This document shows, in pieces, positions 26,301 to 43,835 of a stretch of DNA of 64,000 nucleotides (positions are counted from its first letter, which is position 1; each line of letters opens with the position of its first letter). This DNA is from Candidatus Undivivens industriae. Lineage in GTDB: Bacteria; Omnitrophota; Gorgyraeia; Gygaellales; Profunditerraquicolaceae. The position numbers and the translations under genes are program-made. The stretch covers positions 40,962-104,961 of the forward strand of contig JAAYZR010000002.1 in NCBI GenBank assembly GCA_012514745.1. Reading direction: 5' to 3'. The notes under the pieces were generated by a model. That model was not told the origin of the DNA. It did not search any database and saw nothing but the letters and a program-made list of their open reading frames with translations.

Positions 26301-27637
26301 AACGGGAGATCATTCTTCTCCATCCTGCGTTATGGCCGGCCTTATCGTTCGCCTGCGGGATAGCGGCGGCTGTCCCGTTCACGCTTTGCTGTGTCTGCGC
26401 AGTGGCGGGGATTACCGTGATACTGCTGATGCGGGACAGGAACGCGGCGTGGTTCGCGGCAGTAATTACACTTTGTTTCTTCCTGGGCGGCGCCCGCGGC
26501 CGCGCCGGCGAGATGAGGCCGGCCGACGATTACCGGGGCCTGCTGCGGACGGGCAGGGAGATTTATCTGCTGCGAGGCCGGTTCCGCGGGGAGGCTGTCC
26601 GGCGCGGACGGGGATACCTGTTGGATATGAAATTGTCGGCTTTCTGCGCGGGCGGCGGGTGGCAATCGGCGTCCGGGACGGCTGTCGTGCTGACTCATTT
26701 TTACCCGGGACATTCTTCCGGCAGGGAGGCCGTATTAAAATGCCGCTATTCGCGGTTCAAACATTTTTCCCTCGACTCCGGGCGGGACCTGTGTTTTTTA
26801 TCCGGGGAGAAGAACGGCGGGTCTTTACGCGACAGGATTGGAGGATTATTGAATTACAAGCATACGCCGGCTGGAAAGGGGATAATCTCGGCCATGGTGC
26901 TGGGAGATAAACGCGGCATCCCGCCTCTCGTCAAGCGAACGATGCTGCGTACCGGCACTCTGCATCTGTTGGTGGTCAGCGGTTTCAACACCGGCCTGGT
27001 GGCTTTTTTCGCGCTTTTTTTGCTGAAAGCCGCGCGCGTGCCGAGAAAGGTCAGGATTCTTCTTGCCTGTTGCGCCGTGGCCGCGTATTGCCCGGCCACC
27101 GGAAGCGCGCCCCCGGTTTTCCGCGCCGCGGTGATGACCATCCTCCTGTTGTCCGCGTATCTTATGCGCAGGGAAGCCGTTTTGCTCAATCTGCTCGGCT
27201 GTGCCGCCGCGGTACTGCTGTTCTGCGATCCGCAGATGCTCTTCAGCGTCAGTTTCCAGCTCTCTTTTCTCAGCGTCTTTGCCATAGCCGTATTATGCCC
27301 CTTATTCCGTGCCCTTTCCGGCAACGCGGCCGCGGGCGGCAAATTACTGCGCTGGAGCAGGGAGGCGGGAATAACCGGTTTTTCCGCCTGGATAGGAACA
27401 TTACCGTTCGTATTGTTCTATTTCCGGCTCTTCTCCTGGGTGGCTGTGCCGGCGAACCTGCTGGCGGCTCCTCTAACTTCTTTGATTACTATCTGCGGCT
27501 TCTGTCAGATCATCAGCGTCCCCTTCCTGCCGCGTCTGGCCGGATATTTCGCTTTTATCTCCGACACCCTGATCACGGCTCTGGTTTCTCTGCTGGTTTT
27601 CCTGGAACGTTTCCCGGGCGCATGGCTTAAGATCTGA
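26174..27637 (+). CDS. comEC: ComEC/Rec2-family competence membrane protein (short form without the metallo-beta-lactamase domain); start uncertain
   Basis: ComEC competence-domain block MLRTGTLHLLVVSGFNTGLVAFF and polytopic TM profile. The only ATG is 26174, overlapping comEA by 127 nt; the first in-frame GTG (26402) would remove a TM helix. Confidence 0.6.
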   Translation: MRSARPARRIREYRGVEGSRRNRRGEIRQAEGFLLSGRRGTIKREIILLHPALWPALSFACGIAAAVPFTLCCVCAVAGITVILLMRDRNAAWFAAVITLCFFLGGARGRAGEMRPADDYRGLLRTGREIYLLRGRFRGEAVRRGRGYLLDMKLSAFCAGGGWQSASGTAVVLTHFYPGHSSGREAVLKCRYSRFKHFSLDSGRDLCFLSGEKNGGSLRDRIGGLLNYKHTPAGKGIISAMVLGDKRGIPPLVKRTMLRTGTLHLLVVSGFNTGLVAFFALFLLKAARVPRKVRILLACCAVAAYCPATGSAPPVFRAAVMTILLLSAYLMRREAVLLNLLGCAAAVLLFCDPQMLFSVSFQLSFLSVFAIAVLCPLFRALSGNAAAGGKLLRWSREAGITGFSAWIGTLPFVLFYFRLFSWVAVPANLLAAPLTSLITICGFCQIISVPFLPRLAGYFAFISDTLITALVSLLVFLERFPGAWLKI

Positions 27638-27681
27638 CGGGCCGGTTTTGTCCGACTCACCCGGAGGCCAGGTATTTCTTA

Positions 27682-27710
27682 TTGCGCTTCGCCGGGAAGG
27701 AGCATATAAT
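27682..27710 (+). promoter_or_regulatory. candidate promoter (TTGCGC, 17 nt, TATAAT) upstream of the radical-SAM/glycosyltransferase operon
   Basis: Perfect -10 TATAAT at 27705-27710; weak -35 (3/6) at 27682-27687; 120-nt intergenic gap before GTG 27758. Confidence 0.35.
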
Positions 27711-27757
27711 TAAAGTAACTTGGTTAAGGCGGATCAACTCTTTCAGGGACGGCGGCG

Positions 27758-28483
27758 GTGAAAAAGGTAGACAGTTTAAGCGTGGTTATTCCCATGTATA
27801 ATGAAGAGTATTACGCGCGAGAGGTCGTCGTTGAGGTCATTCGCGCCGTTTCTTCCGTCACTCCGCGCGGCGAAGTGATCGCCGTGGACGATCATAGTTC
27901 GGACGCCACCCCCGTAATACTTGAGAATCTCGTTTCCGGAGACAGCAGGATAAAAATGGTGTGCAACAGCCGCAGGCTAGGGCTGGGTGGCGCCCTGCTG
28001 GCGGGATTTGCGGCCGCCTCGAACTCGGCGGTTTTATATACCGACGCCGATTTTCCCTGCGATATGGGGAATATCCGCCGCGCCGTGGAACTTATGGAAA
28101 GAGAAGACGCCGATATAGTGTCCGCCTACCGGAGCGGATGCCTACGGGAAAGTTTTCACAGGTCGGTCTATTCATTCGTATTCAACGGGATAGTCAATCT
28201 TTTTTTCAATCCCGGGATAAAAGACGTCAATTTCTCCTTTAAATTGTTCGACCGCGAAAAACTGAACGCGTTGAGGATAGGTTCGAGAGGGTCATTTATC
28301 AATACAGAGATATTCGTTAAGGCGAAGCGGTCCGGATATAAGATAGCGCAGTTCCCGGCGCAGTATCTGCGGCGGACGAAAGGCGTCTCAAAACTTGATA
28401 ACTTCGGTAATATCTTCGGCATATTGCGCGAGATGGCTTGCTTCGCGGTATCCGAAAGGAAACGCCGTCCGTTCGATAGATGA
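27758..28483 (+). CDS. family-2 glycosyltransferase (polyprenyl-phosphate sugar synthase / DPM1-ArnC-like)
   Basis: 241 aa; GT2 motifs VVIPMYNEE, AVDDHSSD, TDADFPCD (DXD region); size and architecture of Dpm1/GtrB/ArnC-type enzymes; GTG start. Confidence 0.75.
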   Translation: MKKVDSLSVVIPMYNEEYYAREVVVEVIRAVSSVTPRGEVIAVDDHSSDATPVILENLVSGDSRIKMVCNSRRLGLGGALLAGFAAASNSAVLYTDADFPCDMGNIRRAVELMEREDADIVSAYRSGCLRESFHRSVYSFVFNGIVNLFFNPGIKDVNFSFKLFDREKLNALRIGSRGSFINTEIFVKAKRSGYKIAQFPAQYLRRTKGVSKLDNFGNIFGILREMACFAVSERKRRPFDR

Positions 28484-29136
28484 TAACCCGTGTTTTATCC
28501 GGCATCTCGCGTTATTCCGGTTTCTGGTCCGGGATATACTGCCGGCTGCGGTTATTGACCTGTCCCTTCGGCAGGATATCGGAATTTGTCCCGGCTCGGG
28601 GGCGTATTCTCGACCTGGGGTGCGGGGCCGGCGTATTCTCTTTTCTGCTTTCCGTTTCTTTGCCGTCGAGGCAGATAATCGCAATGGACTGCCGAGCGGA
28701 GAGGCTCCGGTCCTCGGCGCGCGTCGCGGAAGAGAACGGTTTCGGGGCGCTTTCTTTCGTGCAAGGGGATATCCTTTCTTTACCGTATCCCGGACCCGCG
28801 GATTGCATATTGCTGGTCGATGTCCTTTATCAACTGCCGTTCAAGCAAAAAACCGCCGTTATCAGGAAGTGTTATGAAACGCTGGCTAATGACGGGGTGT
28901 TGCTTGTCAAAGAGACCGACGCCGGACCGGGGTGGAAAGCCTTGTTCTGTTATCTGCAGGAAATGATGCTGGCGCGGTTGATAAAACTGAACCGGGGGCG
29001 CGTTGAACCTCTTGCCTGCGCCGCCTGGATGAAGCTGCTGGCGGAAGAAGGATTTTCCGCCGTCATGCGCAGAATAGACAAAGGATATCCGTATCCCCAT
29101 GTCCTTTTCGTGTGCCGTAAGACGGAGAGGGGATGA
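28480..29136 (+). CDS. class I SAM-dependent methyltransferase
   Basis: 218 aa; motif I ILDLGCGAGVFS and acidic post-I loop (AMDCRAE); ATGA overlap with the GT2 gene. Confidence 0.75.
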   Translation: MITRVLSGISRYSGFWSGIYCRLRLLTCPFGRISEFVPARGRILDLGCGAGVFSFLLSVSLPSRQIIAMDCRAERLRSSARVAEENGFGALSFVQGDILSLPYPGPADCILLVDVLYQLPFKQKTAVIRKCYETLANDGVLLVKETDAGPGWKALFCYLQEMMLARLIKLNRGRVEPLACAAWMKLLAEEGFSAVMRRIDKGYPYPHVLFVCRKTERG

Positions 29137-30527
29137 AGAAAATACTGCTTTTAAACCCGCCGTCTCCGCAGTTATGCGTGAGGGATTATTACTGCACTTT
29201 TTCGGCGAAAGCCGCCTACTGTTGGCCGCCGCAGGACCTGATTGCCTTAAGCGGCAGATTGAGCGGGGATTTCCGGGTTTCTTATTATGATCCCCATTCT
29301 CACGGAGACGACCGCCGCCGCAGCCTGGAATACGTGCTGTCCGGAGGTTTTCACGCCGTTATTTTTACCACAGGATCTCTTTATCTGGATGAGGATATTT
29401 CTTTCGTCAAGGCGGTTAAAGAGAGGCTGCCGGGAATTCTCATAGTCGCCAGCAGCGCCATTTTCCGTTCTATAGGCGAAGACATTATGAAAAAGAACCC
29501 TTTTATAGACGGCTTGCTCCTGGATTTTACCAATGATGACGCGCTTAAGTTCCTGCGCGGCGATTACGGCGGCATCTCCGGGATGTTCTTCAGGGACGGC
29601 GGCGGCGCGCTGCATTTGAAAGATAACGCCGGAACCGGAAGGTTCTCTTTCCCCGTCCCTCGTCACGAGCTTTTCAACGGGCGCCAGTACAGATTCCCTC
29701 CCGGGTTTTTTGACAAACGGGGCCCCTTCTTTACTACCGTCGCTTCCGCGGGCTGCCCTTTCAAGTGCGGCTTCTGCACTGCGGCCTCAGTGCCGTACAG
29801 CCGCAGGGACACAGGCAATATTATGGAGGAAATGGACTGGATATGGCGTAAGACCGATGTGCGCAACATCTTTTTCGCCGACTGCAGTTTTACGGCCGAT
29901 CCGGGCGCCGCCGTTGATCTATGCGGCAGGCTGTCCGCTCTTTACGGCGGGTCCCTGTGCTGGATCTGCAATTCCCGGGCGGAACCTCTTTTGGAGAAAG
30001 AGACTGTGCGTATGCTGCGCCGCGCCGGCTGCCGCATGGTAATGATAGGCGCCGAGAGCGGGGATGAACAAGTTTTAAAGCGGCACAATAAACGCGTTTC
30101 CCCTATGCAGGTATGCGAGGCCGTCGTCAACTGCAGAAGAGAAGGGATCCGCACGCTGGTGTATTTTATATTGGGGTTGCCCGGAGAGGACCAGGCGTCT
30201 TTCGCCAAGACCGCGGATTTTATCAAGGGATTGCGCTGTGATTTCATAAGCGTGAGCTTTGCCATGCCGGATTTCGGCACCGCCTTGCGGCAGGAGGCGC
30301 TGGCGCGCGGATTGTGCGAAGAGACCCCGGGAGGATGGGACCATTCAGGCCGTCCGTTCCTCAGCGGGGAGGAAGAGGGGCAAAGGCTGCTCGCGCAGAG
30401 AAAGTCGCTTTACAGGAGGTTTTATTTAAGGCCGGGCCGGCTTGTCCCACGTCTCTTGGGATACGCCGGTCAACTTAAGGCGGGGGATTTTCAGGAAGGG
30501 GTGAGAATATTAAAGAGCTGGTTGTGA
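29133..30527 (+). CDS. B12-binding-domain radical SAM enzyme (class B) number 1
   Basis: 464 aa; N-terminal Rossmann-like B12-binding region (KILLLNPP...), CxxxCxxC in SAGCPFKCGFCTAA; ATGA overlap upstream. Confidence 0.75.
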   Translation: MKKILLLNPPSPQLCVRDYYCTFSAKAAYCWPPQDLIALSGRLSGDFRVSYYDPHSHGDDRRRSLEYVLSGGFHAVIFTTGSLYLDEDISFVKAVKERLPGILIVASSAIFRSIGEDIMKKNPFIDGLLLDFTNDDALKFLRGDYGGISGMFFRDGGGALHLKDNAGTGRFSFPVPRHELFNGRQYRFPPGFFDKRGPFFTTVASAGCPFKCGFCTAASVPYSRRDTGNIMEEMDWIWRKTDVRNIFFADCSFTADPGAAVDLCGRLSALYGGSLCWICNSRAEPLLEKETVRMLRRAGCRMVMIGAESGDEQVLKRHNKRVSPMQVCEAVVNCRREGIRTLVYFILGLPGEDQASFAKTADFIKGLRCDFISVSFAMPDFGTALRQEALARGLCEETPGGWDHSGRPFLSGEEEGQRLLAQRKSLYRRFYLRPGRLVPRLLGYAGQLKAGDFQEGVRILKSWL

Positions 30528-31372
30528 CAGCCGACGACTTCGGCCTTGCCCGGGGCATCAACCGCGGCATAATGGATTGCGTGGAAAGAGGAATAGTAAC
30601 TTCCGTTTCTTTATGCGTCAACGGCAGCGAATACGAAGAGGCGCTGGTTTTCTGCAGACGGTTCCCGGGCCTGGATGCCGGGTTGCATATCCTGCTTGTA
30701 GAAGGGGATGTTTTATCCTCCGCTTCCGCGGAGAGCGGTCTTTCCGACGGGGAAGGCCGTTTACCGGGAAATTGGGCCGCTTTCCTGCCGCGTTATTTTC
30801 TTCGCGGCATAAAACCCGGGGGGCTGGAGAAGGAAATAGGGGCCCAGTTCGATAAGATCTGCGGTTCAGGCATACGCGTGGTGCACGTCAACAGCCACCA
30901 GCATCTTCATATTCTCCCGGGCATACTGGAGATCGTTATAGACAATTGCAGGAAATACGGTATCAAGTATATTCGTGTCCCTTATTCGCGTCCCGGGCTG
31001 CACTGGCTGTCCGCCGGAATACGCAGGGTTTTCTGGCAGGCTATATTGAACCTATTTTGCGCGCGCGCGTTGCCCAAGATAAGAGCGGCCGGCCTGCTGG
31101 CCTGCGGTGAGACGACAGGCGTTCTTCATGCCGGCAGTATAAATATCCCCGTTCTGAAGCAAATAATAATTTCTCTTCAGGAAGGGCTCTCCGAGATAAT
31201 TTGTCATCCTGCTAGAGCCGGCAGGGAACTTTTCCTCCTTTACGGACATTGGGGTTATTCCTGGGATCAAGAAGCCGATTCGATGTGCTCCGGAGAGGCG
31301 AGGGAACTGTTGCAAGACAACGGCATTACCCTTTGCTCGTTCTCCGCCGCGGAGAGAGAAAATGAAGGATAG
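30524..31372 (+). CDS. YdjC/ChbG-family carbohydrate deacetylase (HpnK-like)
   Basis: 282 aa; N-terminal TADDFGLARGINRGIMDCVERGIVTSVSLCVNG typical of PF04794; GTG start overlapping the previous stop (GTGA). Confidence 0.75.
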   Translation: MTADDFGLARGINRGIMDCVERGIVTSVSLCVNGSEYEEALVFCRRFPGLDAGLHILLVEGDVLSSASAESGLSDGEGRLPGNWAAFLPRYFLRGIKPGGLEKEIGAQFDKICGSGIRVVHVNSHQHLHILPGILEIVIDNCRKYGIKYIRVPYSRPGLHWLSAGIRRVFWQAILNLFCARALPKIRAAGLLACGETTGVLHAGSINIPVLKQIIISLQEGLSEIICHPARAGRELFLLYGHWGYSWDQEADSMCSGEARELLQDNGITLCSFSAAERENEG

Positions 31373-32786
31373 AAAACCGGCGGAGACGGCCCTTTTGATA
31401 TATCCTCCCACCGGTATATACGATCGCTTTGAACGCTGTCAGTCTCCCGTAGCATCGGAAAGCGTGAATATTGTCAGGCCTCCTCTCGACCTGGCTTATT
31501 TGGCGGCGGTGCTGGAGAGGCACGGTATTAGGGTTTTGATACGCGATTACCCGGCGGCAGGAAAGGGCTGGAAGGATGTAGAGAAAGATATCCGTTTGTT
31601 TTCCCCGGACATCTTACTTGTCAGCGCCACGTTGTTCACCTGCGGCTGCGACTGCCGCGCTTTTTCCGTTGCCAAAAGGCATAATAAAGATACCGTGTGC
31701 GTGTTGAAAGGGTTCTTTCCCGATGAAGGCCGGCAAGCTCTGTTTGCGACCGGAGAAATAGATTTCGTCCTCTGGGAAGAAGCGGAGTCCGCTCTGGAAG
31801 AGATGGTGAAAGGGACTCTGCCGCAGGATATTCCGGGAGTAGCTTTTCGCGAAAGAGGGGCGGTATCCGTGACAAGCCCGAATCCGAACCCGCAGGAGCT
31901 TGATTCTCTGCCGTTTCCCGCGCGGCATTTGCTGGATAACGGATTATACCGTATGCCGGATAACGGCAGAAAGATGGGTGTGGTGTTGGCCGGCAAGGGC
32001 TGTTTCGGAGAATGCGTGTTTTGTCTGGCGCCTCTGGTTAACGGCAGACGATTGCGCTTGCGCGGGCATGTTTCTTTGATCGAAGAACTGCGGGAATGCG
32101 TATATCGACACGGGATAAGGGATTTCTGGTTGCGCGCGGACAACTTTACCGCCGACAGAGAGTGGGTAATGCGGTTTTGTGCGGAGCTTTCCGGCAGCGG
32201 TCTGCCTGCGCGCTGGGCGGTAAACAGCCGCGCGGATTGTCTGGACAGGGAACTTGGGATGGCGATGAAACGGGCGGGTTGTTTTGCCGTCGGCATAGGC
32301 GCGGAGAGCGGCAGCGAAGATACACTGCGGATGATAAAAAAGAATATAACCAAAGAACAAGTGCGCCGCGCAGTCAATACCTGTAAAGAATGCGGACTGC
32401 AGGCGTATTTATTCTTTATAATAGGTTTCCCCTGGGAGACGAGAAAACATATAACGGAAACCGTGGACTTCGCGTGTGAATTGAAGGGCGACGTCGTGAA
32501 TTTCTCTTTTCCCGTCCCTTTCCGCGGCACCCCGCTGTCGGGAATATATGAGAGCCTGGGTCTGCGCGAGGATAACGCACGTTGCGATGTAAATAATTAC
32601 GGCCTGCCCCGGGGCGGGACGGCATATTTATCCGCGGCCGAGCTTATACAGGCCGAGAAAGCCGCGTACCGCAAGCTTTTTTTCAACCCGGAATATATCC
32701 TGGGGCGTCTGTCGCGTATCGGTTCGCCGCAGGAGTTGCTCCGGCATATCAGGGCGGCATGGCATTTATTGAAAATAAGCGTTTAA
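31362..32786 (+). CDS. B12-binding-domain radical SAM enzyme (class B) number 2
   Basis: 474 aa; GKGCFGECVFCLAP cluster motif preceded by a B12-binding-like domain; 11-nt overlap with the upstream gene. Confidence 0.75.
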   Translation: MKDRKPAETALLIYPPTGIYDRFERCQSPVASESVNIVRPPLDLAYLAAVLERHGIRVLIRDYPAAGKGWKDVEKDIRLFSPDILLVSATLFTCGCDCRAFSVAKRHNKDTVCVLKGFFPDEGRQALFATGEIDFVLWEEAESALEEMVKGTLPQDIPGVAFRERGAVSVTSPNPNPQELDSLPFPARHLLDNGLYRMPDNGRKMGVVLAGKGCFGECVFCLAPLVNGRRLRLRGHVSLIEELRECVYRHGIRDFWLRADNFTADREWVMRFCAELSGSGLPARWAVNSRADCLDRELGMAMKRAGCFAVGIGAESGSEDTLRMIKKNITKEQVRRAVNTCKECGLQAYLFFIIGFPWETRKHITETVDFACELKGDVVNFSFPVPFRGTPLSGIYESLGLREDNARCDVNNYGLPRGGTAYLSAAELIQAEKAAYRKLFFNPEYILGRLSRIGSPQELLRHIRAAWHLLKISV

Positions 32787-32800
32787 AAGGTGATTCTGTT

Positions 32801-34114
32801 ATGAAGGACCTTCTTTTGATATTTCCTTCTCCGGGAGGCGGTAATTATATCAATACCTTTCCGCCTTTGGGTATTCTTTATTTGGCTTCTTTTCTGGAGA
32901 AAGAAGGTTTTTCCGTGGATGTCGTAGACTGCGCGGCGGATCCTTTCTCCGCGCGGCAGGCCGCCGGATACAAGACGGTCGGCGTAAGCCTGAACATCTC
33001 CAATGTGGAGAGCGGCACGGCTCTGCTTAACGAGATAAACCGGCTTTATCCCGCTGTGGAACTGGTTGTCGGAGGGCCGCTGCCGACCGTCTCCCCGGAA
33101 GTTTTCTTCCCGCTGCCTTTGAAAGCGATCTTCGTCTCCGAGGCAGAGGAGAGCCTTTTGGCGTATCTGCGCTATCCGGGAGAAGCGGACAACAAAGGAT
33201 ATTATTTCCGCGACGGCTCAGGGCGGTGGCGTTTCAACGGGAAGCGGCCGTATATAAAAGATCTGGACAAGCTGCCTTTTCCGGCTTTGAACAAGCTGGA
33301 CATCGGGAAATATTATACTCCCGTCAGGCGTTCCGCTCCGGTGTCGGCGTTGATATCTTCCCGCGGCTGTCCGTTCGAGTGCGGTTTCTGCTGCCACGTG
33401 CTCGGGGAAGAATACCGGGCGAGGTCGGCGGAAAACGTGGTGGATGAAATAGAGTGGCAGGTAAAGGAAATCGGCACGAGGGAGATCGCGTTATACGACG
33501 ATAACTTTACCCTGGACCGTGGGCGGGTTATGGAGATCTGCCTGCGGCTCCTGCATAGAAAGATCAAGGTGTCTTTACAGCTCACCAACGGCGTAAGAGC
33601 CGATACTCTTGACGAAGAGCTGCTGCGGACGATGAAATCAGCCGGAGTCTGGATGATCGCGCTTGCGCCGGAGAGCGGAAGCGGGGCCACGCTGGCGAGA
33701 ATACACAAGAGGTTTGCCGCGCGCGAGGTGGAGAAGGGGCTGTCTTTATGCCGCCGCCTGGGCATAAACACCTGGGTTTTTTTCATTCTCGGATTTCCCT
33801 GGGAGAAAGAAGCAGATTTCGCCGCGACTGTGAAGGCGGCCTGTTCGACAGATGCCGATATGGTGCATTTTTCCAGATTTGTGCCGCTGCCGGGCACGCC
33901 GCTTTATGCTCTTTCCTGTCCGGGGATCCCGTCACAAGGGATGCGGGACGCCGATCTGTTTTCCGCCTCGGGCCGGAGCGCCCTTACGGCGCGCGCCTAC
34001 AGAAGCGTTTATCTCAGGCATCCGCTCAGACTGCTGCGGCTGTTGCGGATATGTCCTTTTCTTGATATATTCAGGTTGATACTGCATGCTTTCAAAACAA
34101 GGAATGTATTCTGA
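32801..34114 (+). CDS. B12-binding-domain radical SAM enzyme (class B) number 3
   Basis: About 437 aa from MKDLLLIFPSPGG (ATG 32801 with AAAGG RBS); SRGCPFECGFCCH cluster motif. Confidence 0.75.
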   Translation: MKDLLLIFPSPGGGNYINTFPPLGILYLASFLEKEGFSVDVVDCAADPFSARQAAGYKTVGVSLNISNVESGTALLNEINRLYPAVELVVGGPLPTVSPEVFFPLPLKAIFVSEAEESLLAYLRYPGEADNKGYYFRDGSGRWRFNGKRPYIKDLDKLPFPALNKLDIGKYYTPVRRSAPVSALISSRGCPFECGFCCHVLGEEYRARSAENVVDEIEWQVKEIGTREIALYDDNFTLDRGRVMEICLRLLHRKIKVSLQLTNGVRADTLDEELLRTMKSAGVWMIALAPESGSGATLARIHKRFAAREVEKGLSLCRRLGINTWVFFILGFPWEKEADFAATVKAACSTDADMVHFSRFVPLPGTPLYALSCPGIPSQGMRDADLFSASGRSALTARAYRSVYLRHPLRLLRLLRICPFLDIFRLILHAFKTRNVF

Positions 34115-34153
34115 GCCGCGGCCCGGCTTCAGCCGGGTTGGACGCTCCGGAGG

Positions 34154-36877
34154 ATGCTTCAGATGATGAATTCAACCCGGCGCAGGAAGATCGGCGCGGC
34201 GCTCGTTCTATTCTTGCTTTTCTTATTAGCGTATACGGCGCACAATACGGTTTATCTGAAAAGAAACGCCGGATTCTACTGTCTGGAACAGTCTCTTTAT
34301 GATTCGGTGCAGCATTTTTATTCCGCTCAGGATAATCCCCGCAGCCTGCCGCATATAATCTGGAGACTCGTCGGCCCCGAGGCCGGGGAAAGGGGCCTGT
34401 ATGAATTATTCTGCTGGCCGTTCTTTTTCCTGTTCGGGGTATCCTATCAGACGGCAATTTATCCCAATTTTCTTTTTCTTCTTCTTCTGGCCTGCAGTGT
34501 ATATAAAACCGGGGTGTTGGTAAAGAACCGGGAGGTCGGATACCTGGCGGCATTTCTGACGCTTATGTATCCTGCCGTTTTCGGATTCTCGAGGATCTAT
34601 TTTACCACGCTCGCCGTCACGAGCCTGGTATCCGTGTGTAATTATTGTTTTCTTTCTTCCGGTCTTTTCAGGTCCGTCCGGAAGACGCTGCTTTTTGTGC
34701 TGTGCCTTCTGCTTCTCTTAAAGCTGAAGGCGGAGAAAAGCGTAATTTACGTCCTTTTTCCGGCGGGTCTTTATTTGTTTTCCGGTTTCAGACGCGGTTC
34801 AGGGAAGCCTTCATTTTCAGCACGTCAGGGGGTGAACATCGCGGCCGGGGCGGTTTTGTTCCTGTTGCTCTTTTTCATACTATTCAGGCAGGATTTTTTT
34901 TCGGGCCGAATCGGGTATTACCTGAATGACATAAAGAATTTCAGCTCCAGCCTGCGCATCGGCTCGGCTTCTTTCGTTATTACCGTGGCCACCGCGTATC
35001 TTAAGGATCTTTTTTCCACCCAATTAGGGAATTTGGGAGGTCTTTTTTTCATCGCCGCTTTCCCGTATTTTCTAAAGAGCGGAGTCCGTTTTAAATCCTT
35101 CCTGGTTTTCTGGATAACGATCCCGTATATTTTTCATACCGTTTATTACTGGTTTTCCGGGATACACTCCGCTTATTATACGGTTCAGTATCTTCCGGCG
35201 TTCGCCTTGATCTCTGCCTGCGGCATGCATAATATGTTTTCCCGGAGAAGAGAAACGGTAAAAATAGCCGTATATGCCGTGATAATCGCGCTCAGCCTGT
35301 CGAATTATACGCTTATTTCCCATTGCAACAGACAACTGCCGCTGCTGCGCAAGATTGCCAGCGACTCCTTCACAGGTAAAATGTCCATGTCCCTGATCCC
35401 CGGAGAGAACATAATCTTCGGGACGGCCCAGAAACTGGCCGAGGCTGTGGCGTCTACCGGCGGTTCGGCGCGCGTGGTCCTGGCCAATCACTATCCTTCG
35501 CTGCACTGGCTTTACGGAAAGATGCGCCTGCACAACAGTATCATGCGCTATCCGGTGTTTCTTTACGACTATTCATACAAGGTTTTCAGCCTGGAACCGC
35601 CGGACAAGAGGGCGTTGTTATCACAACGCTTCAAGAACGCAGATTTGATCATAGACGGGAAGAATATGTATCCGGTGGAGTCTTCCGGCAGGCTGGGCCT
35701 CTACCGTCAATTCGGGGCCTATTACGATTTCCGCGGGGTGATGAAGAATGAGGAAGAGGAGTACAAAGGAAGAATAGCGGATATGGAGAAGATATACAGC
35801 GTGAATACGGGGGAGAATAAGATCGACTTCTGGATCAGCCGGGAAGCTCGGCAGGCGTTCATCGCTAAAACCGGCAGGGATATCTGCGCATTCAGCAGAC
35901 AAGAGATAAGTTCCTTGATCCGGCGGCCGCTCGACAAAGGAAAGATCATGAATCAAAGAATAAAGTTCGTTTCTTCCGGGGGCAGGAATACCGTTTTCTG
36001 GAAAGACCGCGAACTTTTATCGTTCACGGCCCTGGAAGACTATAATACACCGGGATTCATCTCCCCAAACTTCTGCGTAGAGACAAAGAAGGGAGAACTG
36101 ATAGTTTCAAAAACGGATGAGTGCGGTAATGATGAAGGCGGCCATATTGAACAGGTCTGGACGATCCGTCTGGTAGGAGATATGCTCGATCTAAAATTGG
36201 AGATAGATACCAGGGATCAGTTGTGCCTGCGGTTACAGAGGCCACTTGTTTGTTTCTTGAGAAGAGCGGACGGTCCCGCTTGGGGCTGCGGGGTAAATTC
36301 CCGTAAAATCAGCTATTCCCGTGATATCGTTTTCGGCGGGCTCAAACAGCGCTTCTTTGAATACGAATCCGCAGCTAACGGCCCCTCTTTATCTCTTAAT
36401 AAGAAAATGTCTTTCTGCATCCCCAGTTTTTTCATTGCGCCCTTGCTGGGGCGGCACTACGATACACACGAATTATCACTGTTGCTGCACGGTATCGAAA
36501 GGCTCTATGGACAAAAGTTCCCGGCAAGAAGGATATTGACCGGAGGCCCGGGTTTGCGGGGGAGCATGTATGTCGGGATAGCGCCTGATGCCGATCTGCC
36601 CGGGATGATAATGATCTACGATTCCGGGTTATTGACCAGCCTGTATAGAGCGGATGAATACAGAATTGAGCCGGGGAACATCGGCATTCTTGCTCATGCC
36701 GGAGGAACGGTTACACTGGGCCCGGGTCGCTTTACGGTCCTCTCCTGCCGTATTATATTCTACGGCACGGCTGAGGATTTTTTCCTGGCCGCGGATAAAT
36801 TAAGACAGGATACAAGACCGGGGGACCGGCCGATAAAAATAAGATTGCTCCGTCAAGACACAGTTGACAAAAGATAG
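34154..36877 (+). CDS. large polytopic membrane protein with about 480-aa C-terminal soluble domain; candidate GT-C (ArnT/PMT-like) glycosyltransferase
   Basis: 907 aa; at least 10 predicted TM helices in the first 430 aa with Arg/Phe/Tyr-rich loops; no motif I can verify by eye; last gene of the operon. Confidence 0.5.
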   Translation: MLQMMNSTRRRKIGAALVLFLLFLLAYTAHNTVYLKRNAGFYCLEQSLYDSVQHFYSAQDNPRSLPHIIWRLVGPEAGERGLYELFCWPFFFLFGVSYQTAIYPNFLFLLLLACSVYKTGVLVKNREVGYLAAFLTLMYPAVFGFSRIYFTTLAVTSLVSVCNYCFLSSGLFRSVRKTLLFVLCLLLLLKLKAEKSVIYVLFPAGLYLFSGFRRGSGKPSFSARQGVNIAAGAVLFLLLFFILFRQDFFSGRIGYYLNDIKNFSSSLRIGSASFVITVATAYLKDLFSTQLGNLGGLFFIAAFPYFLKSGVRFKSFLVFWITIPYIFHTVYYWFSGIHSAYYTVQYLPAFALISACGMHNMFSRRRETVKIAVYAVIIALSLSNYTLISHCNRQLPLLRKIASDSFTGKMSMSLIPGENIIFGTAQKLAEAVASTGGSARVVLANHYPSLHWLYGKMRLHNSIMRYPVFLYDYSYKVFSLEPPDKRALLSQRFKNADLIIDGKNMYPVESSGRLGLYRQFGAYYDFRGVMKNEEEEYKGRIADMEKIYSVNTGENKIDFWISREARQAFIAKTGRDICAFSRQEISSLIRRPLDKGKIMNQRIKFVSSGGRNTVFWKDRELLSFTALEDYNTPGFISPNFCVETKKGELIVSKTDECGNDEGGHIEQVWTIRLVGDMLDLKLEIDTRDQLCLRLQRPLVCFLRRADGPAWGCGVNSRKISYSRDIVFGGLKQRFFEYESAANGPSLSLNKKMSFCIPSFFIAPLLGRHYDTHELSLLLHGIERLYGQKFPARRILTGGPGLRGSMYVGIAPDADLPGMIMIYDSGLLTSLYRADEYRIEPGNIGILAHAGGTVTLGPGRFTVLSCRIIFYGTAEDFFLAADKLRQDTRPGDRPIKIRLLRQDTVDKR

Positions 36878-36899
36878 CGGTTGTGCTACCGTAAACACT

Positions 36900-37844
36900 A
36901 TGTTTACCAAGGTATTTCTTGTTATCTTCTCTCTCATCCTGCTGACGGATCAGTCCGCGTTCGCCTATTGGATATGGACTCCTAAAAGCGGTAAATGGGT
37001 CAATCCCAAGACCGCCGTGAAACCCACCCCGAAAGAACAGGCTGAGGCGGCGATTTTTCTGTTCGAAGGCAAGCATTACGACGAAGCCGGGAAAGAATTC
37101 CGAAAATTGATCAAGGCTTACCCCAAGTCGGCGGAAGCGGCTGTCAGCCAGTATTATCTTGGGAGAATAAATGAGGCCTCCGGTAAGCCTTACGAGGCGT
37201 TTAAGGCTTACCAGTTGTTGATCGATAAGTACCCTTTCTCCGATAAAATCCAGGAGGCTATCGAAAGACAGTACGGTATAGGAGAAGAGTTTGTTTCCGG
37301 CAAGAGAAAAGGCGTGTCGGCGGTATTCGCCCCGGAGAATCCGGGGGTGGAGATATTCTCCAAGGTGGTGGAGAATTCCAATTACGGACCGCTGGCGGAC
37401 AAGGCCCAGTACAAGCTCGGCCTTGTGCTCAAGGGCCTTTCGCGTTACTATGAGGCGGAAGAAGCCTTTTTCAAGCTGATCAAGACTTATCCGGACAGCG
37501 AATGGGTGCCTGCGGCCCAGTTTCAGATAGCCGCCTGCCGCGCCGCCGTCTCCCAGGGGCCGGATTACGACCAGGGCGCGACAAAGGAGGCAAAGGAAAG
37601 GTTTATGTCTTTCGTCAACACCCATCCGGACGCCGTTCTTTCGCCAGAGGCGCAGAAGAACATAGACGCGTTGAAGGACAAGGAAGCATGCAGCGCCTTC
37701 AATTCCGGCAGGTTTTACGAGAAACAAAGGATTTATCAGTCGGCCAGGATATATTATGAAGACGTGGTAAAGAATTATCCGGGCACCATGTGGGCCGCGA
37801 AATCGCTGGAAAGACTGCAGATCCTCGAGAGGAAGAAGAAATGA
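36900..37844 (+). CDS. TPR-repeat outer-membrane lipoprotein-like protein (BamD/YbgF-like)
   Basis: Signal peptide MFTKVFLVIFSLILLTDQSAFA; repeated 34-aa A/Y/L-rich TPR-like units (...AEAAVSQYYLGRI..., ...ADKAQYKLGLVLKG..., ...AAKSLERL). Confidence 0.55.
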   Translation: MFTKVFLVIFSLILLTDQSAFAYWIWTPKSGKWVNPKTAVKPTPKEQAEAAIFLFEGKHYDEAGKEFRKLIKAYPKSAEAAVSQYYLGRINEASGKPYEAFKAYQLLIDKYPFSDKIQEAIERQYGIGEEFVSGKRKGVSAVFAPENPGVEIFSKVVENSNYGPLADKAQYKLGLVLKGLSRYYEAEEAFFKLIKTYPDSEWVPAAQFQIAACRAAVSQGPDYDQGATKEAKERFMSFVNTHPDAVLSPEAQKNIDALKDKEACSAFNSGRFYEKQRIYQSARIYYEDVVKNYPGTMWAAKSLERLQILERKKK

Positions 37845-38395
37845 AGCGTCTACGGTTTTTGTTCATACCGGCCGTTATTTCGGCTGCGGCGGGTTTCCTG
37901 CTTTCCTCCTGCGGCTACACCACCCGCTCAATGATAACCGGAAGTTACAAGACGGTTTACATCGCTCCTTTCGTCAATAAGGTCGATATTACCGGCGAGT
38001 CCGATTCCAGAGAGGGTTATAAAGTCTACCGTCCGATGCTGGAGAGCGATATTACCCGTACTCTTACGCGCCGTTTCCTTATGGACGGCAATCTTAAGCC
38101 GGTCGGCATAGAGAATGCGGATCTGATACTGAAAGGTGAACTGGTGGAATTCCGCAGGGATCCCCTGCGTTACAACACAGATAACGAAGTGGACGAATAC
38201 CGGATGAACTTGCTGGTGAACATAAGCCTCTGGGAACCCGGCGCAGACAAACCGCTCTGGGAAGAAAGGAATTTCACCGGTGACACCACTTATTTCGTCA
38301 GGGGAGTTGCCGCCAAGTCGGAGGACGCCGCCGTTAACGACGCGCTGCTCGATCTCGCCCGCAGAATAGTGGAGCGCACTGTTGAACAATGGTAG
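37841..38395 (+). CDS. lptE: LptE-like lipoprotein (LPS assembly), by size, lipobox and leuS...lptE-holA synteny
   Basis: 184 aa; MKRLRFLFIPAVISAAAGFLLSSC lipobox; ATGA overlap upstream; followed by a holA-like gene as in E. coli leuS-lptE-holA. Confidence 0.5.
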   Translation: MKRLRFLFIPAVISAAAGFLLSSCGYTTRSMITGSYKTVYIAPFVNKVDITGESDSREGYKVYRPMLESDITRTLTRRFLMDGNLKPVGIENADLILKGELVEFRRDPLRYNTDNEVDEYRMNLLVNISLWEPGADKPLWEERNFTGDTTYFVRGVAAKSEDAAVNDALLDLARRIVERTVEQW

Positions 38396-39057
38396 CCGGA
38401 GATATCCTTGTCTATGTTTTTGCCGGAGAAGATTCCGCGGCAAAAACCCTTCGTTTGAACCAGCTTAAAGAAACATTCCTGCCTTCCGATACCCGGGAAT
38501 TCAACCTCGACGTTTTTTACGGCAACGATATGGACCTGCGTTCTTTGCAGGAAAGGATTTTGAGTATCCCGGTGAGCGCTTCCCGGCGGATGATAGTCCT
38601 GAAGAACGCCGGCGCATTGTCGTCTGCCGCGAAGAAATTCATCTCGGCTTACGCCCCGGCCGCAAACAAATCTATATTGCTTGTGGTGGATTTCGAACGG
38701 TTCGATCCCAAAGATCCTTTTCAGTCATCTTTATGCAGGGCCGGACGCCTTATCCGCTTTGGGGAAACTCCGCATGCGGACGTCTTTGTTCTTGCCGGGC
38801 AGTTACGCTCCGGGCGGGCGGCAGACGCGCTCCGGGGCTTACACAGCCTTATGGAATCCGGGGAGAAACCGGAACGCATTCTCGGAGGCCTGCGTTATTC
38901 CTGCGCTAAATGGGAAAAAGGACGTTCGGCGGCGGCTTTCAAGGAGATATTACGCTGCGATCTGCAGATAAAAACCGGTCGTCTGAAACCGCTTTTTGCC
39001 CTGGAGCGTCTTATTGCGGCTCTCGCCCGGCAAGCCCGCGCCGTCGGATCCGGATAA
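38389..39057 (+). CDS. holA: DNA polymerase III delta subunit-like protein (short)
   Basis: 222 aa; N-terminal region (ILVYVFAGEDSAAKTLRLNQLKETF..., RRMIVLKNAG) resembles HolA; only about two-thirds of canonical length. Confidence 0.45.
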   Translation: MVAGDILVYVFAGEDSAAKTLRLNQLKETFLPSDTREFNLDVFYGNDMDLRSLQERILSIPVSASRRMIVLKNAGALSSAAKKFISAYAPAANKSILLVVDFERFDPKDPFQSSLCRAGRLIRFGETPHADVFVLAGQLRSGRAADALRGLHSLMESGEKPERILGGLRYSCAKWEKGRSAAAFKEILRCDLQIKTGRLKPLFALERLIAALARQARAVGSG

Positions 39058-39087
39058 AGAAACCGCCGGCAAGAATTCACCGGCGGC
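39051..39087 (-). terminator. hairpin terminator shared by convergent holA (+) and rpsT (-)
   Basis: CCGCCGG (39063-39069) / CCGGCGG (39080-39086) perfect 7-bp stem with 10-nt loop; on the minus strand it is followed by TTTCTTTATCC. Confidence 0.45.
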
Positions 39088-39115
39088 TTACAGGTGTCGA
39101 CTATAGAGACGAGCT

Positions 39116-39379
39116 TCAGGTCGTCTTCATTACTTTTTTGTTTAGACGCGATTTGCGGCGGTCGGCCGTGGCAGGATGAATGATCTTTTTCTTGGCGGCC
39201 TTGTCCAGTTTGGAAAAAACTTCTTTAAGGGCTTTTTGCGCTTCCTGGGTGTTCTTGGACGCTACAAGCATCTGTAATTCCTTGATCTTTTTTTTGAGTT
39301 CTTTCTTGATCTTGAAATTACGCAGGTGTCTTTTCTTGCTTAATTTGTTCATTAATATGGAACTGCGTCTTCTTGGCAT
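39116..39379 (-). CDS. rpsT: 30S ribosomal protein S20
   Basis: Basic alpha-helical 78-87 aa protein; ...KKIIHPATADRRKSRLNKKV matches the S20 C-terminus (GLIHKNKAARHKANL); true start probably the internal ATG 39352 (MNKLSKKRHL). Confidence 0.75.
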   Translation of the reverse strand: MPRRRSSILMNKLSKKRHLRNFKIKKELKKKIKELQMLVASKNTQEAQKALKEVFSKLDKAAKKKIIHPATADRRKSRLNKKVMKTT

Positions 39380-39511
39380 AACTTTCTCCTTGTGAATTTA
39401 TTATATACATAAAAGTCTGGTCATCAGACGGTTAGACGACGGATTGACCCGAAGTCCAATTATACAACGGCGCCGGTAATTAATCAATATTTTATTATCA
39501 CATGTCAAGGA

Positions 39512-41098
39512 ATGCCCGTGACAAGAGAGTTACATAATCAATGCAGGGGGATGATGCGTTCCGCCGGATTGATCGGTGCGGCGACCCTGTGTTCCCGCAT
39601 CCTCGGTTTCTGCCGGGACATAGTCATAGCCCGCATGTTCGGCGTATACGTTTACGCCCAGGCTTTCGTCGTGGCCTTCCGCATCCCGAATCTCTTTCGT
39701 GATATAGTCGGAGAAGGCGCGGTGAATTCGGCTTTTGTGCCGGTGTTCAGCCGCTACGCCCTCAGGCGAGACAAGGCCGAGTTCTGGGAACTGGCCAATG
39801 TCCTGCTTAACGTCCTTCTGGTCGTGCTTGCGGCGATAGTCCTGGCCGGCGTGGTCTTTTCTCCCTTTATAATCAGGGTTTTCGCTCCGGGGTTCACCGC
39901 AGACCCAGTCAAATTCCAGACGACAGTGCTGCTTAACAGGCTGGTTTTTCCTTATTTACTGCTGATAAGCCTGGCGGCATATACCATGGCCATGCTGAAT
40001 TCCTTAGGCCATTTCAAGGCTCCGGCATTTGCGCCGTGCCTGTTGAATATTTCAATTATCCTTTGCGCCCTTTTTTTCGGGGAAGGGATAACCGGCCTGG
40101 CCTCCGGCATCCTGATAGGCGGGGTTCTTCAGTTGGCGGTGCAGATTCCGGCGGTCTACGCCCACGGATTCCGCGTAAAGGGGTTCTTGACTAAATTCAG
40201 CCATCCGGGCGCGGCCGAGGTCGTCCGTCTTCTCGTGCCGCGATTATTCGGCACGTGTATTTATCAGCTCAATAATTTCGTCGATTCGGTTTTCGGCTCG
40301 CTGGCTTTCGCCGTGGGAGAGGGCGGAGTAGCCGTGCTTTATTTCGCCTACAGGCTGGTGCAATTTCCTGTGGGGATATTCGGCAACGCCGTGGCGCAGG
40401 CGTCCCTGCCGCTGATGTCCGCACAGGCCGCAGGCGATGACGGGACCGGCGATCTCAAGGCCACTCTTGTGACCAGCCTGCGCCAGGTGTTCTTTCTGAT
40501 GGTACCGGCATCGGCATTTTTTATTGCTCTTTCCGGCCGGCTCATAGAAGGGATTTTTAGCGGGGGCAGGTTCGACGCCTACGCTTCGTCCGCCACGGCG
40601 GATGCGCTCTCCTGTTATAGTATAGGACTATGCGCTTATGCCGGCAGTAAAGTGCTGAATTCCTGCTTTTTCGCCATGCATGATACCGCCTCCCCTGTGA
40701 AGGTATCAGCGGCGGCACTGATGATCAACGTCATACTTAATGCTTTATTGATGTTTCCTTTAAAAATAAAAGGGCTGGCCCTGGCAAGTTCCGTGTCGGG
40801 AATCGTTTCTTTCCTTATGCTTATCCGGATACTCGACAAAAAGACCGGGGGGCTTGATCTTGGGGTGATAGCGGTTTCTTTGGCGAAGCTGCTCGCCGCC
40901 GGCGCGGCCGCCGGATACGCCTGTTTTTTTATTTCGTCGAGACTGCCCGGTTACTGCCGGGGCGATGGTTTCTTTTTTCACGCGGCATTGCTGGCCGTGT
41001 ACTTTGTCTGCTGCTGCGCCGTATATATCGCCGTGTGCAAGATGTTAAGGTGTCCGGAGCCGGGAGAGTTGCTGGGATGGATGAAGAAAAAACTTTGA
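39512..41098 (+). CDS. murJ: lipid II flippase MurJ (MviN)
   Basis: 528 aa, 14-TM MOP-superfamily profile; N-terminus MRSAGLIGAATLCSRILGFCRDIVIARMFG is the MurJ signature. Confidence 0.85.
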   Translation: MPVTRELHNQCRGMMRSAGLIGAATLCSRILGFCRDIVIARMFGVYVYAQAFVVAFRIPNLFRDIVGEGAVNSAFVPVFSRYALRRDKAEFWELANVLLNVLLVVLAAIVLAGVVFSPFIIRVFAPGFTADPVKFQTTVLLNRLVFPYLLLISLAAYTMAMLNSLGHFKAPAFAPCLLNISIILCALFFGEGITGLASGILIGGVLQLAVQIPAVYAHGFRVKGFLTKFSHPGAAEVVRLLVPRLFGTCIYQLNNFVDSVFGSLAFAVGEGGVAVLYFAYRLVQFPVGIFGNAVAQASLPLMSAQAAGDDGTGDLKATLVTSLRQVFFLMVPASAFFIALSGRLIEGIFSGGRFDAYASSATADALSCYSIGLCAYAGSKVLNSCFFAMHDTASPVKVSAAALMINVILNALLMFPLKIKGLALASSVSGIVSFLMLIRILDKKTGGLDLGVIAVSLAKLLAAGAAAGYACFFISSRLPGYCRGDGFFFHAALLAVYFVCCCAVYIAVCKMLRCPEPGELLGWMKKKL

Positions 41099-42357: not shown

Positions 42358-42638
42358 AAAAAAAGAGAACCGGTCTGAGTCCATTCGCGCTTGAAGTGTA
42401 TCTTACCGTCGCTTCCATTCCCTACGGTCAAGTGCGCACTTATAAATGGGTGGCGGCTAAGATGGGGAAGGAGCTGGCCTGCCGCGCCGTGGGGACCGCC
42501 CTGAAGAATAACCCTTGGCCGATGCTCATCCCTTGCCACCGTGTGGTGAAAAGCGGAGGAGATGCCGGGGAATATGTTTACGGCAGGGAGATGAAGAAGT
42601 TTTTGATAGAATTTGAGCGAAAAACGGCCAAGATATGA
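42354..42638 (+). CDS. methylated-DNA-protein-cysteine methyltransferase DNA-binding domain protein (stand-alone MGMT C-domain, 94 aa)
   Basis: Active-site motif IPCHRVV with HTH upstream (VRTYKWVAAKMG); ATGA-coupled to the uvrC-like gene. Confidence 0.7.
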   Translation: MKKKRTGLSPFALEVYLTVASIPYGQVRTYKWVAAKMGKELACRAVGTALKNNPWPMLIPCHRVVKSGGDAGEYVYGREMKKFLIEFERKTAKI

Positions 42639-42719
42639 TATAATCAGAACTCAAGGTTTTCTTCGGATAAGTGGCGGCGGGGAGGTGATTTCCCCGTAGG
42701 CGACAGCGGAGGTACCATT

Positions 42720-43796: not shown

Positions 43797-43835
43797 GAAG
43801 CGGCCGGCAACGCCGTTTTACAAAGAGAGGAAGAG

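Follow-up and report, generated by a model that had tools for sequence, protein, structure and literature searches.

We describe an operon of seven genes in the genome of Candidatus Undivivens industriae (Omnitrophota). The window, that is, the whole stretch of DNA that was analyzed, is 64,000 nucleotides long. Between 27.7 and 36.9 kb, seven consecutive open reading frames (ORFs) lie head to tail and tightly packed on its + strand. They encode a family 2 glycosyltransferase (GT2), an S-adenosylmethionine (SAM)-dependent methyltransferase, a YdjC-family deacetylase, three radical SAM enzymes (rSAM1, rSAM2 and rSAM3) and a large membrane protein with a predicted GT-C glycosyltransferase fold. 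On balance, we favor a reading in which the operon is a lipid-carrier-based, periplasmic amino-sugar modification system of the NaxD/Lgm/Arn type, extended by radical SAM and methyl tailoring. The building blocks are of known kinds. Hence the system is not categorically new; what is new is the interleaved, modular block of radical SAM tailoring enzymes within a system of this type. Its presence hints at a surface sugar that is heavily tailored and has not been described before.

The soluble sugar enzymes are readily recognized. A first-pass annotation, made from the DNA letters alone, had named the domains of the GT2 enzyme, the methyltransferase, the YdjC protein and the three radical SAM proteins, and all of these calls hold by Pfam. 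The GT2 enzyme matches PF00535 at 2.5e-26 (93 bits). Its closest solved structures are ArnC (9BHC, 8VXH and 9HWJ; ~4e-13), GtrB (5EKP) and DPMS (5MLZ), with residues 5-225 covered. These top matches in the PDB agree with the earlier proposal of a polyprenyl-phosphate sugar synthase, and by sequence similarity we assign the enzyme to this type. The best NCBIfam models are PgfS (65 bits, cutoff 500), ArnC (57 bits, cutoff 529), AglJ and PpgS (37 bits, cutoff 370), all of them far under their equivalog cutoffs. HpnI is not among the 19 NCBIfam families listed for this protein at E<=0.01. The protein has no hydrophobic or transmembrane (TM) segment and ends at residue 241, without the C-terminal TM hairpin of ArnC and GtrB; its length fits the 226-position PpgS model. 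The methyltransferase matches the Pfam families Methyltransf_31, Methyltransf_25 and Methyltransf_11.

The YdjC protein matches PF04794 over its full length (residues 2-264 of 282; 4.8e-49, 168 bits, threshold 29.7). The HpnK model (TIGR03473) gives 165.2 bits for a cutoff of 232.6, which places the protein below the HpnK equivalog level. The ChbG model gives 97.6 bits and covers the N-terminal half only. The best match in the PDB is the chitooligosaccharide deacetylase 7VI8 (2e-15). A second, unrelated sugar deacetylase is encoded elsewhere in the window (49554-50975): a PIG-L protein of 473 amino acids (aa) from the GlcNAc-PI (N-acetylglucosaminyl-phosphatidylinositol) de-N-acetylase family, adjoining lnt and secA.

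All three radical SAM proteins carry PF04055 and a single CxxxCxxC motif each: CPFKCGFC at residue 208 of rSAM1 (PF04055 at 3.7e-23), CFGECVFC at residue 214 of rSAM2 and CPFECGFC in rSAM3 (PF04055 at 3.9e-19). The first-pass annotation had called them three B12-binding radical SAM enzymes. The radical SAM core is present in all three, and the B12-binding domain PF02310 is recognized in rSAM3 (7e-13, 48.9 bits) and rSAM2 (32.6 bits, threshold 32.1) but not in rSAM1, where it scores 19.6 bits, below threshold, and the N-terminal domain is degenerate and B12-like. The three proteins thus appear to have class B architecture, a CxxxCxxC core with an N-terminal B12-type domain, and they may use cobalamin. 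AprD4 has the same B12-like domain, yet it is reported to be independent of cobalamin. Its substrate is a soluble, glucosamine-containing aminoglycoside intermediate.

The best NCBIfam model for all three radical SAM proteins is HpnJ (TIGR03471), with 137 bits for rSAM1, 165.3 for rSAM2, where the match runs over nearly the full length, and 124.8 for rSAM3. The cutoff is 577.6. Other models stay far under their cutoffs as well: AprD4 gives 74-113 bits (cutoff 500), the ApyD model for an enzyme of ribosomally synthesized and post-translationally modified peptides (RiPPs) gives 115-131 bits for rSAM2 and rSAM3 (cutoff 750), and TIGR04072, named 'lipid biosynthesis B12-binding/radical SAM protein', gives 64-87 bits (cutoff 360). 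The closest solved structure to each of the three is AprD4 (6FD2), matched at 8.9e-17 by rSAM1 and at 1.5e-40 by a profile of rSAM2 orthologs. Going by these comparisons, the enzymes fall in the HpnJ/BchE/AprD4 region of the superfamily and in no characterized family; the first-pass annotation had considered that they might belong to one, and the best model, HpnJ, reaches 125-165 bits against 577.6.

The three proteins share 27-31% identity with one another, and their one-to-one orthologs in distant loci are 45-57% identical. Their sequences mark them as old paralogs. Orthologs of rSAM1 are 45-52% identical in five related loci (L002, L008, L009, L020 and L024). The most conserved gene of the cluster is rSAM2, with orthologs of 55-57% identity in L002, L008 and L009. 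The presence of three such enzymes in one operon, described earlier as unusual, is not so within the lineage: related loci carry up to ~10.

The membrane protein is the least familiar member of the operon. At E<=0.01 it has no match in Pfam or NCBIfam, the curated ArnT model included, and only five close homologs are found among 5.8 billion proteins. A profile built on it finds 2,954 relatives among 1.84 billion representatives, which match its first ~390 residues. PF13231 (PMT_2) is present in 8 of 10 sampled relatives, in 7 of them above the Pfam gathering score. The protein consists of ~11-13 TM helices (residues 1-395) followed by a periplasmic alpha/beta domain (residues ~418-575). An AlphaFold2 model computed from 14 sequences has a predicted local distance difference test score (pLDDT) of 80-90 over residues 1-570; over the greater part of residues 590-907 it stays below 50. 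When this model is compared with the PDB by Foldseek, ArnT (5F15 and 5EZM) comes out on top, with an E-value of 2e-7 and a TM-score of 0.54-0.56 normalized on ArnT. STT3/OST, AftD, ALG12 and PglB follow, together with at least 30 further GT-C structures at a probability of ~1.0. By sequence, a profile of 6 membrane-protein sequences has no match in the PDB, and a family profile of 40 sequences matches ArnT 5EZM at E=3e-4. Matches of the latter profile to CrcB were set aside as weak alignments of TM helix to TM helix.

The predicted structure of the membrane protein shows a GT-C fold, and ArnT matches it best. The GT-C topology proposed in the first-pass annotation for a protein of 907 aa is thereby supported by the Foldseek ranking and by the PMT_2 domains of the relatives, with the start revised so that the protein has 904 aa. 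By analogy with ArnT-like enzymes, we expect it to use a polyprenyl-phosphate-linked sugar donor. In the first periplasmic loop the sequence is C-L-E44-Q with one conserved acid (D in the homolog P0010), where the wider family has a D-E/D-x pair; the register of this alignment is uncertain by one residue. Residues ~600-904 (window 35950-36877) form a beta-rich C-terminal domain that is poorly predicted and has no family match. It occurs in the nearest relatives only and in P0009, a protein of 950 aa with an additional C-terminal extension, and it is the most divergent part between alleles. This domain may be an acceptor-binding module.

The gene set is not peculiar to this genome. It recurs in more than 10 metagenomic loci at 31-94% identity, so that the absence from other genomes that the first-pass annotation had allowed for is not what we see; the set is found on many other contigs. 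The full order of seven genes is kept in L005 and L007/L010 (92-94% nucleotide identity), in L001 (81-85% nucleotide identity) and in L008 (37-57% aa identity). L017 and L024 have the same gene order, with the GT2 enzyme and the methyltransferase fused in one polypeptide (751-2112 in L017 and 664-2007 in L024). Other loci are reduced: L009 and L011 are without rSAM3, L002 is without GT2 and YdjC genes beside the cluster, and L020 is without the methyltransferase and YdjC. The minimal version, L021/L022, has one radical SAM/SPASM gene followed by GT2, YdjC and PMT_2 GT-C genes, the last three of which overlap. In L025, a B12-radical SAM gene and a ydjC gene are followed by a fusion of GT2 with a B12-binding radical SAM enzyme (P0233; L025 9710-11923), whose radical SAM part is 40% identical to rSAM2. 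We rejected NTP_transf_3 as a separate domain of P0233, since the match is below threshold and overlaps the GT2 domain.

What persists across these loci is a stable association of a GT-C and a GT2 enzyme, with or without YdjC, and radical SAM enzymes in varying number. That unrelated genes lie side by side by chance can be rejected because the order is conserved at 31-57% identity, stop and start codons overlap and two kinds of fusion exist. The same two kinds of fusion, which are independent of each other, speak directly for a role of the methyltransferase and the rSAM2 family in the GT2 step.

Some of the related loci carry more genes. Six or more further radical SAM, SPASM or B12-radical SAM genes lie in L017 (9775-19667), L020 (6784-13619) and L024 (8702-18683), and none of them reaches any curated family cutoff. 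L024 also carries a second unannotated protein of 567 aa and another GT2 gene. In two clusters of 40% identity the neighboring genes (L008, 1073-3483 and 11732-14652; L009, 598-1200) include one for a nitroreductase-family protein in both loci. Additional neighbors in L008 are a NodU/TobZ-type carbamoyltransferase, an extra GT2 gene and an amine-oxidase-like protein of the flavin adenine dinucleotide (FAD) type. The neighbor genes of L008 and L009 may be further partners in sugar tailoring.

A comparison of close strains shows how the operon moves. We compared positions 30431-44110 of the window with positions 1-12353 of L011, a contig that stops inside ydjC. Downstream, from 36852 to 44110, the two are 98.07% identical with zero gaps across bamD, lptE, holA, murJ and uvrC. 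Upstream of 36852 identity drops to 75-78% and rSAM3 is absent. No alignment at the DNA level is obtained for 36030-36852, the 3' end of the membrane-protein gene, which encodes its last ~280 residues. The breakpoint is therefore placed at the very end of the GT-C gene. An identity of 98% downstream against 75-78% within the operon means that the operon has been swapped as a cassette between strains. In other relatives divergence is even across operon and flanks, and the more distant versions of the cluster lie in genomic surroundings that are unrelated. Judged by this pattern of identity, the operon is a cassette that recombines between close strains, like surface-antigen loci.

The host has an outer membrane: the window encodes BamD, LptE, a TolC-like OEP protein and Lnt. 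Taxon labels of the matching database entries conflict. The identical NCBI protein P0001 is labeled 'Elusimicrobia bacterium', genomes of 86% identity are labeled Candidatus Omnitrophota, and relatives of 40-68% identity are labeled 'uncultured Planctomycetales' (P0001; L005-L009).

The first-pass annotation had proposed that a lipid-linked N-acetylhexosamine (HexNAc) is made, deacetylated, tailored and then transferred by a GT-C enzyme. This is our best reading too, because the GT2 type, the GT-C fold and the conservation of the gene set all held; its substrates, order of steps and acceptor are what we infer. In such a pathway, the soluble GT2 enzyme, working on the inner side of the membrane, would load polyprenyl phosphate with N-acetylhexosamine taken from a nucleotide sugar, as its family resemblance suggests. 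By analogy with NaxD, the YdjC protein would then strip the N-acetyl group and expose the amine. Alteration of the sugar, with its glycosyl-phosphate linkage left intact, would be the task of the methyltransferase and of rSAM1-3, which are HpnJ/AprD4-like and cytoplasmic. Candidate reactions are C-methylation, deoxygenation, oxidation or epimerization, and N- or O-methylation; some of the enzymes may use the nucleotide sugar instead. A transporter encoded outside the operon would flip the donor across the membrane. Finally, the GT-C enzyme would move the tailored sugar to a periplasmic acceptor, most likely lipid A, the core of lipopolysaccharide (LPS) or another surface glycan, and this acceptor is possibly bound by the beta-rich C-terminal domain.

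A more specific version of this pathway is that the radical SAM enzymes act directly on the polyprenyl-phosphate-linked amino sugar, which would yield a new cationic, branched or deoxy sugar that the GT-C enzyme installs on LPS or a surface glycan of Omnitrophota-type bacteria. We put this version forward tentatively, as a possibility more than an expectation.

Several observations favor the lipid-carrier pathway in its general form. Among them are the solved relatives of the GT2 enzyme, all of which are polyprenyl-phosphate glycosyltransferases, the likeness of the membrane protein to ArnT in fold and in its one meaningful sequence match in the PDB, the PMT_2 domains of its relatives, the recurrence of the full gene order, the two fusions and the outer membrane of the host. 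The minimal relative L021/L022 keeps GT2, YdjC and PMT_2 together with a single radical SAM gene. The strain-level swap of the operon next to neighbors that are 98% identical supports it as well, because such swaps are typical of surface-antigen loci. Precedents exist for the separate steps. NaxD, a member of the YdjC superfamily, deacetylates undecaprenyl-phosphate-linked N-acetylgalactosamine, and the sugar then goes on to lipid A (PMC11279074); lgmA-C are needed for glucosamine (GlcN) on Bordetella lipid A (PMC4993483). Cytoplasmic remodeling of a lipid-linked sugar before GT-C transfer is also known, as is a GT-C enzyme with a C-terminal carbohydrate-binding module (PMC11127046).

Other observations weigh against it. 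The operon contains no flippase (GtrA, ArnE/F, MATE or Wzx). On the + strand, 27.6-36.9 kb holds only seven ORFs of at least 100 aa, and none is a small multi-TM protein. Every specific curated model scores far below its cutoff; hence no enzyme of the operon is an ortholog of a characterized one. The acidic pair of the first GT-C loop is cut to a single glutamate. L002 and L020 lack YdjC and/or GT2 beside their radical SAM and GT-C genes, so the radical SAM/GT-C core can do without deacetylation and perhaps also without the GT2 step. Adjacency to bamD-lptE is confined to the closest lineage. Our literature search gave no radical SAM enzyme that acts on a polyprenyl-phosphate sugar and no paper in which radical SAM enzymes are connected with YdjC or with sugar pathways on a lipid carrier. 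A genome survey of Omnitrophota mentions radical SAM domains in other contexts only.

In one alternative the three-component system is the same, but the radical SAM enzymes and the methyltransferase work on a soluble nucleotide sugar before the GT2 step, or on a precursor of the acceptor glycan. AprD4, their closest solved relative (6FD2), does use a soluble substrate, and loci without YdjC or GT2 retain radical SAM and GT-C genes. However, the fusions of GT2 with the methyltransferase and with a radical SAM enzyme put the tailoring domains at the membrane-proximal GT2 step, and the operon has no dehydratase, aminotransferase or nucleotidyltransferase. We consider this alternative unlikely, if still worth keeping in view. 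A head-group route like that of HpnI-HpnK-HpnJ strikes us as rather unlikely. Here, the GT2 enzyme would put HexNAc directly on a membrane lipid alcohol, YdjC would deacetylate it, and one HpnJ-like radical SAM enzyme would contract the ring to an aminocyclitol ether that the others decorate. The first-pass annotation had seen the hpnI-hpnJ-hpnK trio mirrored in the GT2, B12-radical SAM and YdjC genes, and this is right insofar as HpnK (165 bits, full length) and HpnJ (125-165 bits) are the best NCBIfam models. Yet both stay well under their cutoffs (232.6 and 577.6), and the GT2 enzyme resembles lipid-carrier synthases and, with HpnI missing from its 19 listed families, is not HpnI-like. Both the logic of HpnI/K/J and the contraction of a ring by Cds have been described (PMC13459092), and the route parallels archaeal calditol synthase. 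Squalene-hopene cyclase (SHC) is present at low level in Omnitrophota (PMC12324291), but no SHC domain occurs in the ten large ORFs of the window that were scanned, nor in the called genes of the related loci. Moreover, a GT-C enzyme, which the Hpn pathway does not use, is found wherever a locus extends to that end of the cluster, and ring contraction would presumably destroy the glycosyl-phosphate donor that the GT-C enzyme requires.

If the radical SAM enzymes instead modified a ribosomal peptide or protein, as ApyD and PoyC do, the membrane protein would be a PMT-like protein O-glycosyltransferase. The ApyD model does match rSAM2 and rSAM3 (115-131 bits), the PMT_2 family includes protein mannosyltransferases, and L017, L020 and L024 are rich in radical SAM genes of the SPASM type, a type typical of peptide maturases. 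The ApyD scores are nevertheless lower than those of HpnJ and far under the cutoff of 750. The operon leaves no space for a gene that encodes a precursor peptide, the + strand has no such gene of at least 100 aa, the radical SAM enzyme is fused to GT2 and not to a peptide-binding domain, and neither a YdjC sugar deacetylase nor a lipid-carrier GT2 has a role in RiPP chemistry. We regard peptide maturation as very improbable. We give still less credence to synthesis of membrane-spanning or branched core lipids, similar to glycerol dialkyl glycerol tetraethers (GDGTs) or their branched forms (brGDGTs), with the sugar genes as unrelated neighbors. The first-pass annotation had named this alternative, and it has gained no support: its sole basis is the TIGR04072 matches (64-87 bits), which reach neither the cutoff of 360 nor the scores of several other families, and no specific lipid model, be it a Tes, Grs or Mss equivalog, is matched. 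The conserved order, the overlapping stop and start codons and the GT2 fusions also speak against a chance adjacency of this kind.

How the proposed lipid-carrier system relates to known ones can be stated more closely. The same trio of a GT2 lipid-carrier synthase, a deacetylase of lipid-linked HexNAc and an ArnT-like GT-C enzyme is found in Francisella as FlmF2/NaxD/FlmK and in Bordetella as LgmA/LgmC/LgmB; the likeness is one of enzyme type. GT2 plus a YdjC deacetylase (NaxD, LgmC) plus an ArnT-like transferase is an already known route for galactosamine (GalN) or GlcN on lipid A. It is the closest precedent, and the first-pass annotation overlooked it. The present operon differs in that the trio is interspersed with a methyltransferase and three radical SAM enzymes of an HpnJ/AprD4-like kind, the GT2 enzyme is without TM helices, and the GT-C enzyme bears a further, beta-rich domain of ~300 aa and a single loop acid.

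The Arn pathway, which adds 4-amino-4-deoxy-L-arabinose (L-Ara4N) to lipid A, follows a shared logic, since an N-acylated amino sugar on a lipid carrier is first unmasked, after which a GT-C enzyme transfers it. Among solved structures, ArnC is closest to the GT2 enzyme and ArnT to the membrane protein. In contrast, the ArnC model scores 56.6 bits against 529, no ArnT model is matched, and the operon has no equivalents of ArnA, ArnB, ArnE or ArnF. ArnD belongs to a deformylase family different from YdjC. The hopanoid enzymes HpnI, HpnK and HpnJ have the combination of GT2, YdjC and a B12-like radical SAM enzyme in common with the operon, which however has a GT2 enzyme that is not HpnI-like and a GT-C enzyme in addition. 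AprD4, the radical SAM diol dehydratase of apramycin, has the solved structure closest to rSAM1-3, and the operon lacks a partner reductase of the AprD3 type. Three-component periplasmic glycosylation (Gtr type; pentofuranose systems, Kelly et al. 2024, PMC11127046) shares the lipid-carrier synthase, the GT-C enzyme and cytoplasmic auxiliary enzymes. The auxiliaries of the pentofuranose systems are epimerases of the short-chain dehydrogenase/reductase (SDR) and DprE types, not radical SAM enzymes, and their flippase gene is missing here (PMC11127046).

Features of the operon and its borders, in coordinates of the window
Feature	Position	Strand	Basis
Possible promoter, TTGCGC (27682-27687), 17-nucleotide spacer, TATAAT (27705-27710)	27682-27710	+	Read from sequence; in the 120-nucleotide gap after comEC
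GT2 glycosyltransferase, 241 aa, GTG start	27758-28483	+	PF00535
Class I SAM-dependent methyltransferase, 218 aa	28480-29136	+	Pfam
rSAM1, radical SAM enzyme, 464 aa	29133-30527	+	PF04055
YdjC-family carbohydrate deacetylase, 282 aa	30524-31372	+	PF04794
rSAM2, radical SAM and B12-binding domain, 474 aa	31362-32786	+	PF04055, PF02310
rSAM3, radical SAM and B12-binding domain, 437 aa	32801-34114	+	PF04055, PF02310
GC-rich hairpin, 9 bp, tetraloop, in spacer between rSAM3 and membrane-protein genes	34119-34140	+	RNAfold
GT-C-fold membrane glycosyltransferase, 904 aa (907 aa from ATG 34154)	34163-36877	+	Predicted structure
Recombination breakpoint at 3' end of operon	36852		L011 comparison

The genes are packed somewhat less tightly than the first-pass annotation had claimed when it let every junction overlap. 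Stop and start codons overlap at four of the six junctions, as ATGA at 28480 and 29133, as GTGA at 30524 and by 11 nucleotides at 31362, whereas the two junctions on either side of rSAM3 are gaps. Between rSAM2 and rSAM3 the gap is 14 nucleotides when ATG 32801 is taken as the start, which is also the choice of the first-pass annotation. An overlap arises only with the unsupported upstream ATG 32759, from which rSAM3 would be 451 aa long. ATG 32801 is most likely the true start because it is preceded by a ribosome-binding-like AAAGGTGA and the L001 ortholog also has 437 aa.

Between rSAM3 and the membrane protein the gap is 39 nucleotides to ATG 34154 and 48 nucleotides to ATG 34163. The longest ORF opens at 34154, where L005 (10001-10012) has an in-frame TAG. 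ATG 34163 (MMNS...) sits 8 nucleotides after a GGAGG motif and gives a protein of 904 aa, the length of the NCBI protein P0001. ATG 34163 is thus most likely the true start, because of the in-frame TAG just upstream in L005 and the length of the NCBI protein. RNAfold gives -21.5 kcal/mol for the spacer at 34115-34162. The stem of its hairpin is kept and the loop varied in L005 and L001, and the hairpin is deleted in L007. A terminator scan did not call it, and no T-run follows. The hairpin may be an element of mRNA processing or stability, or an attenuator.

Position 27682, given in the first-pass annotation as the start of the cluster, is not a gene start; it is the first base of the weak -35-like hexamer TTGCGC. 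The upstream TATAAT box was correctly seen and is a perfect match. The further claim that the operon is obligately co-expressed from one promoter is overstated. Such co-expression is unproven because a consensus scan of 27637-27758 called no sigma-70 site; the -35 hexamer matches 3 of 6 consensus positions. At the other end, bamD, lptE and a holA-like gene come next on the + strand with gaps of at most 22 nucleotides. With so little spacing, the transcription unit may exceed seven genes and run on into bamD-lptE-holA.

The seven genes have no paralogs elsewhere within the 64-kb window. All plausible genes of the whole window (1-64000) are on the + strand, and each of its 32 intervals of 2 kb shows positive GC skew. 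Hence the entire 64 kb is co-oriented and probably lies on the leading strand.

Sugar tailoring by radical SAM enzymes is known so far mainly from antibiotic and cofactor pathways. If the proposed pathway is true, a route of lipid A or surface-glycan decoration can be combined with radical SAM chemistry, and direct action at the lipid-carrier stage would be the first radical SAM chemistry at that stage of glycan assembly. Radical C-methylation or deoxygenation of sugars on a lipid carrier would give glycoengineering new enzyme activities. The fusions of GT2 with the methyltransferase and of GT2 with a radical SAM enzyme are compact and tractable targets for biochemistry. The number of radical SAM genes per locus, from 1 to ~10, would act as a modular generator of surface-sugar diversity. 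The operon would then be a candidate for strain-level surface variation, and it would bring new envelope sugar structures to a large, uncultured and possibly host-dependent phylum.

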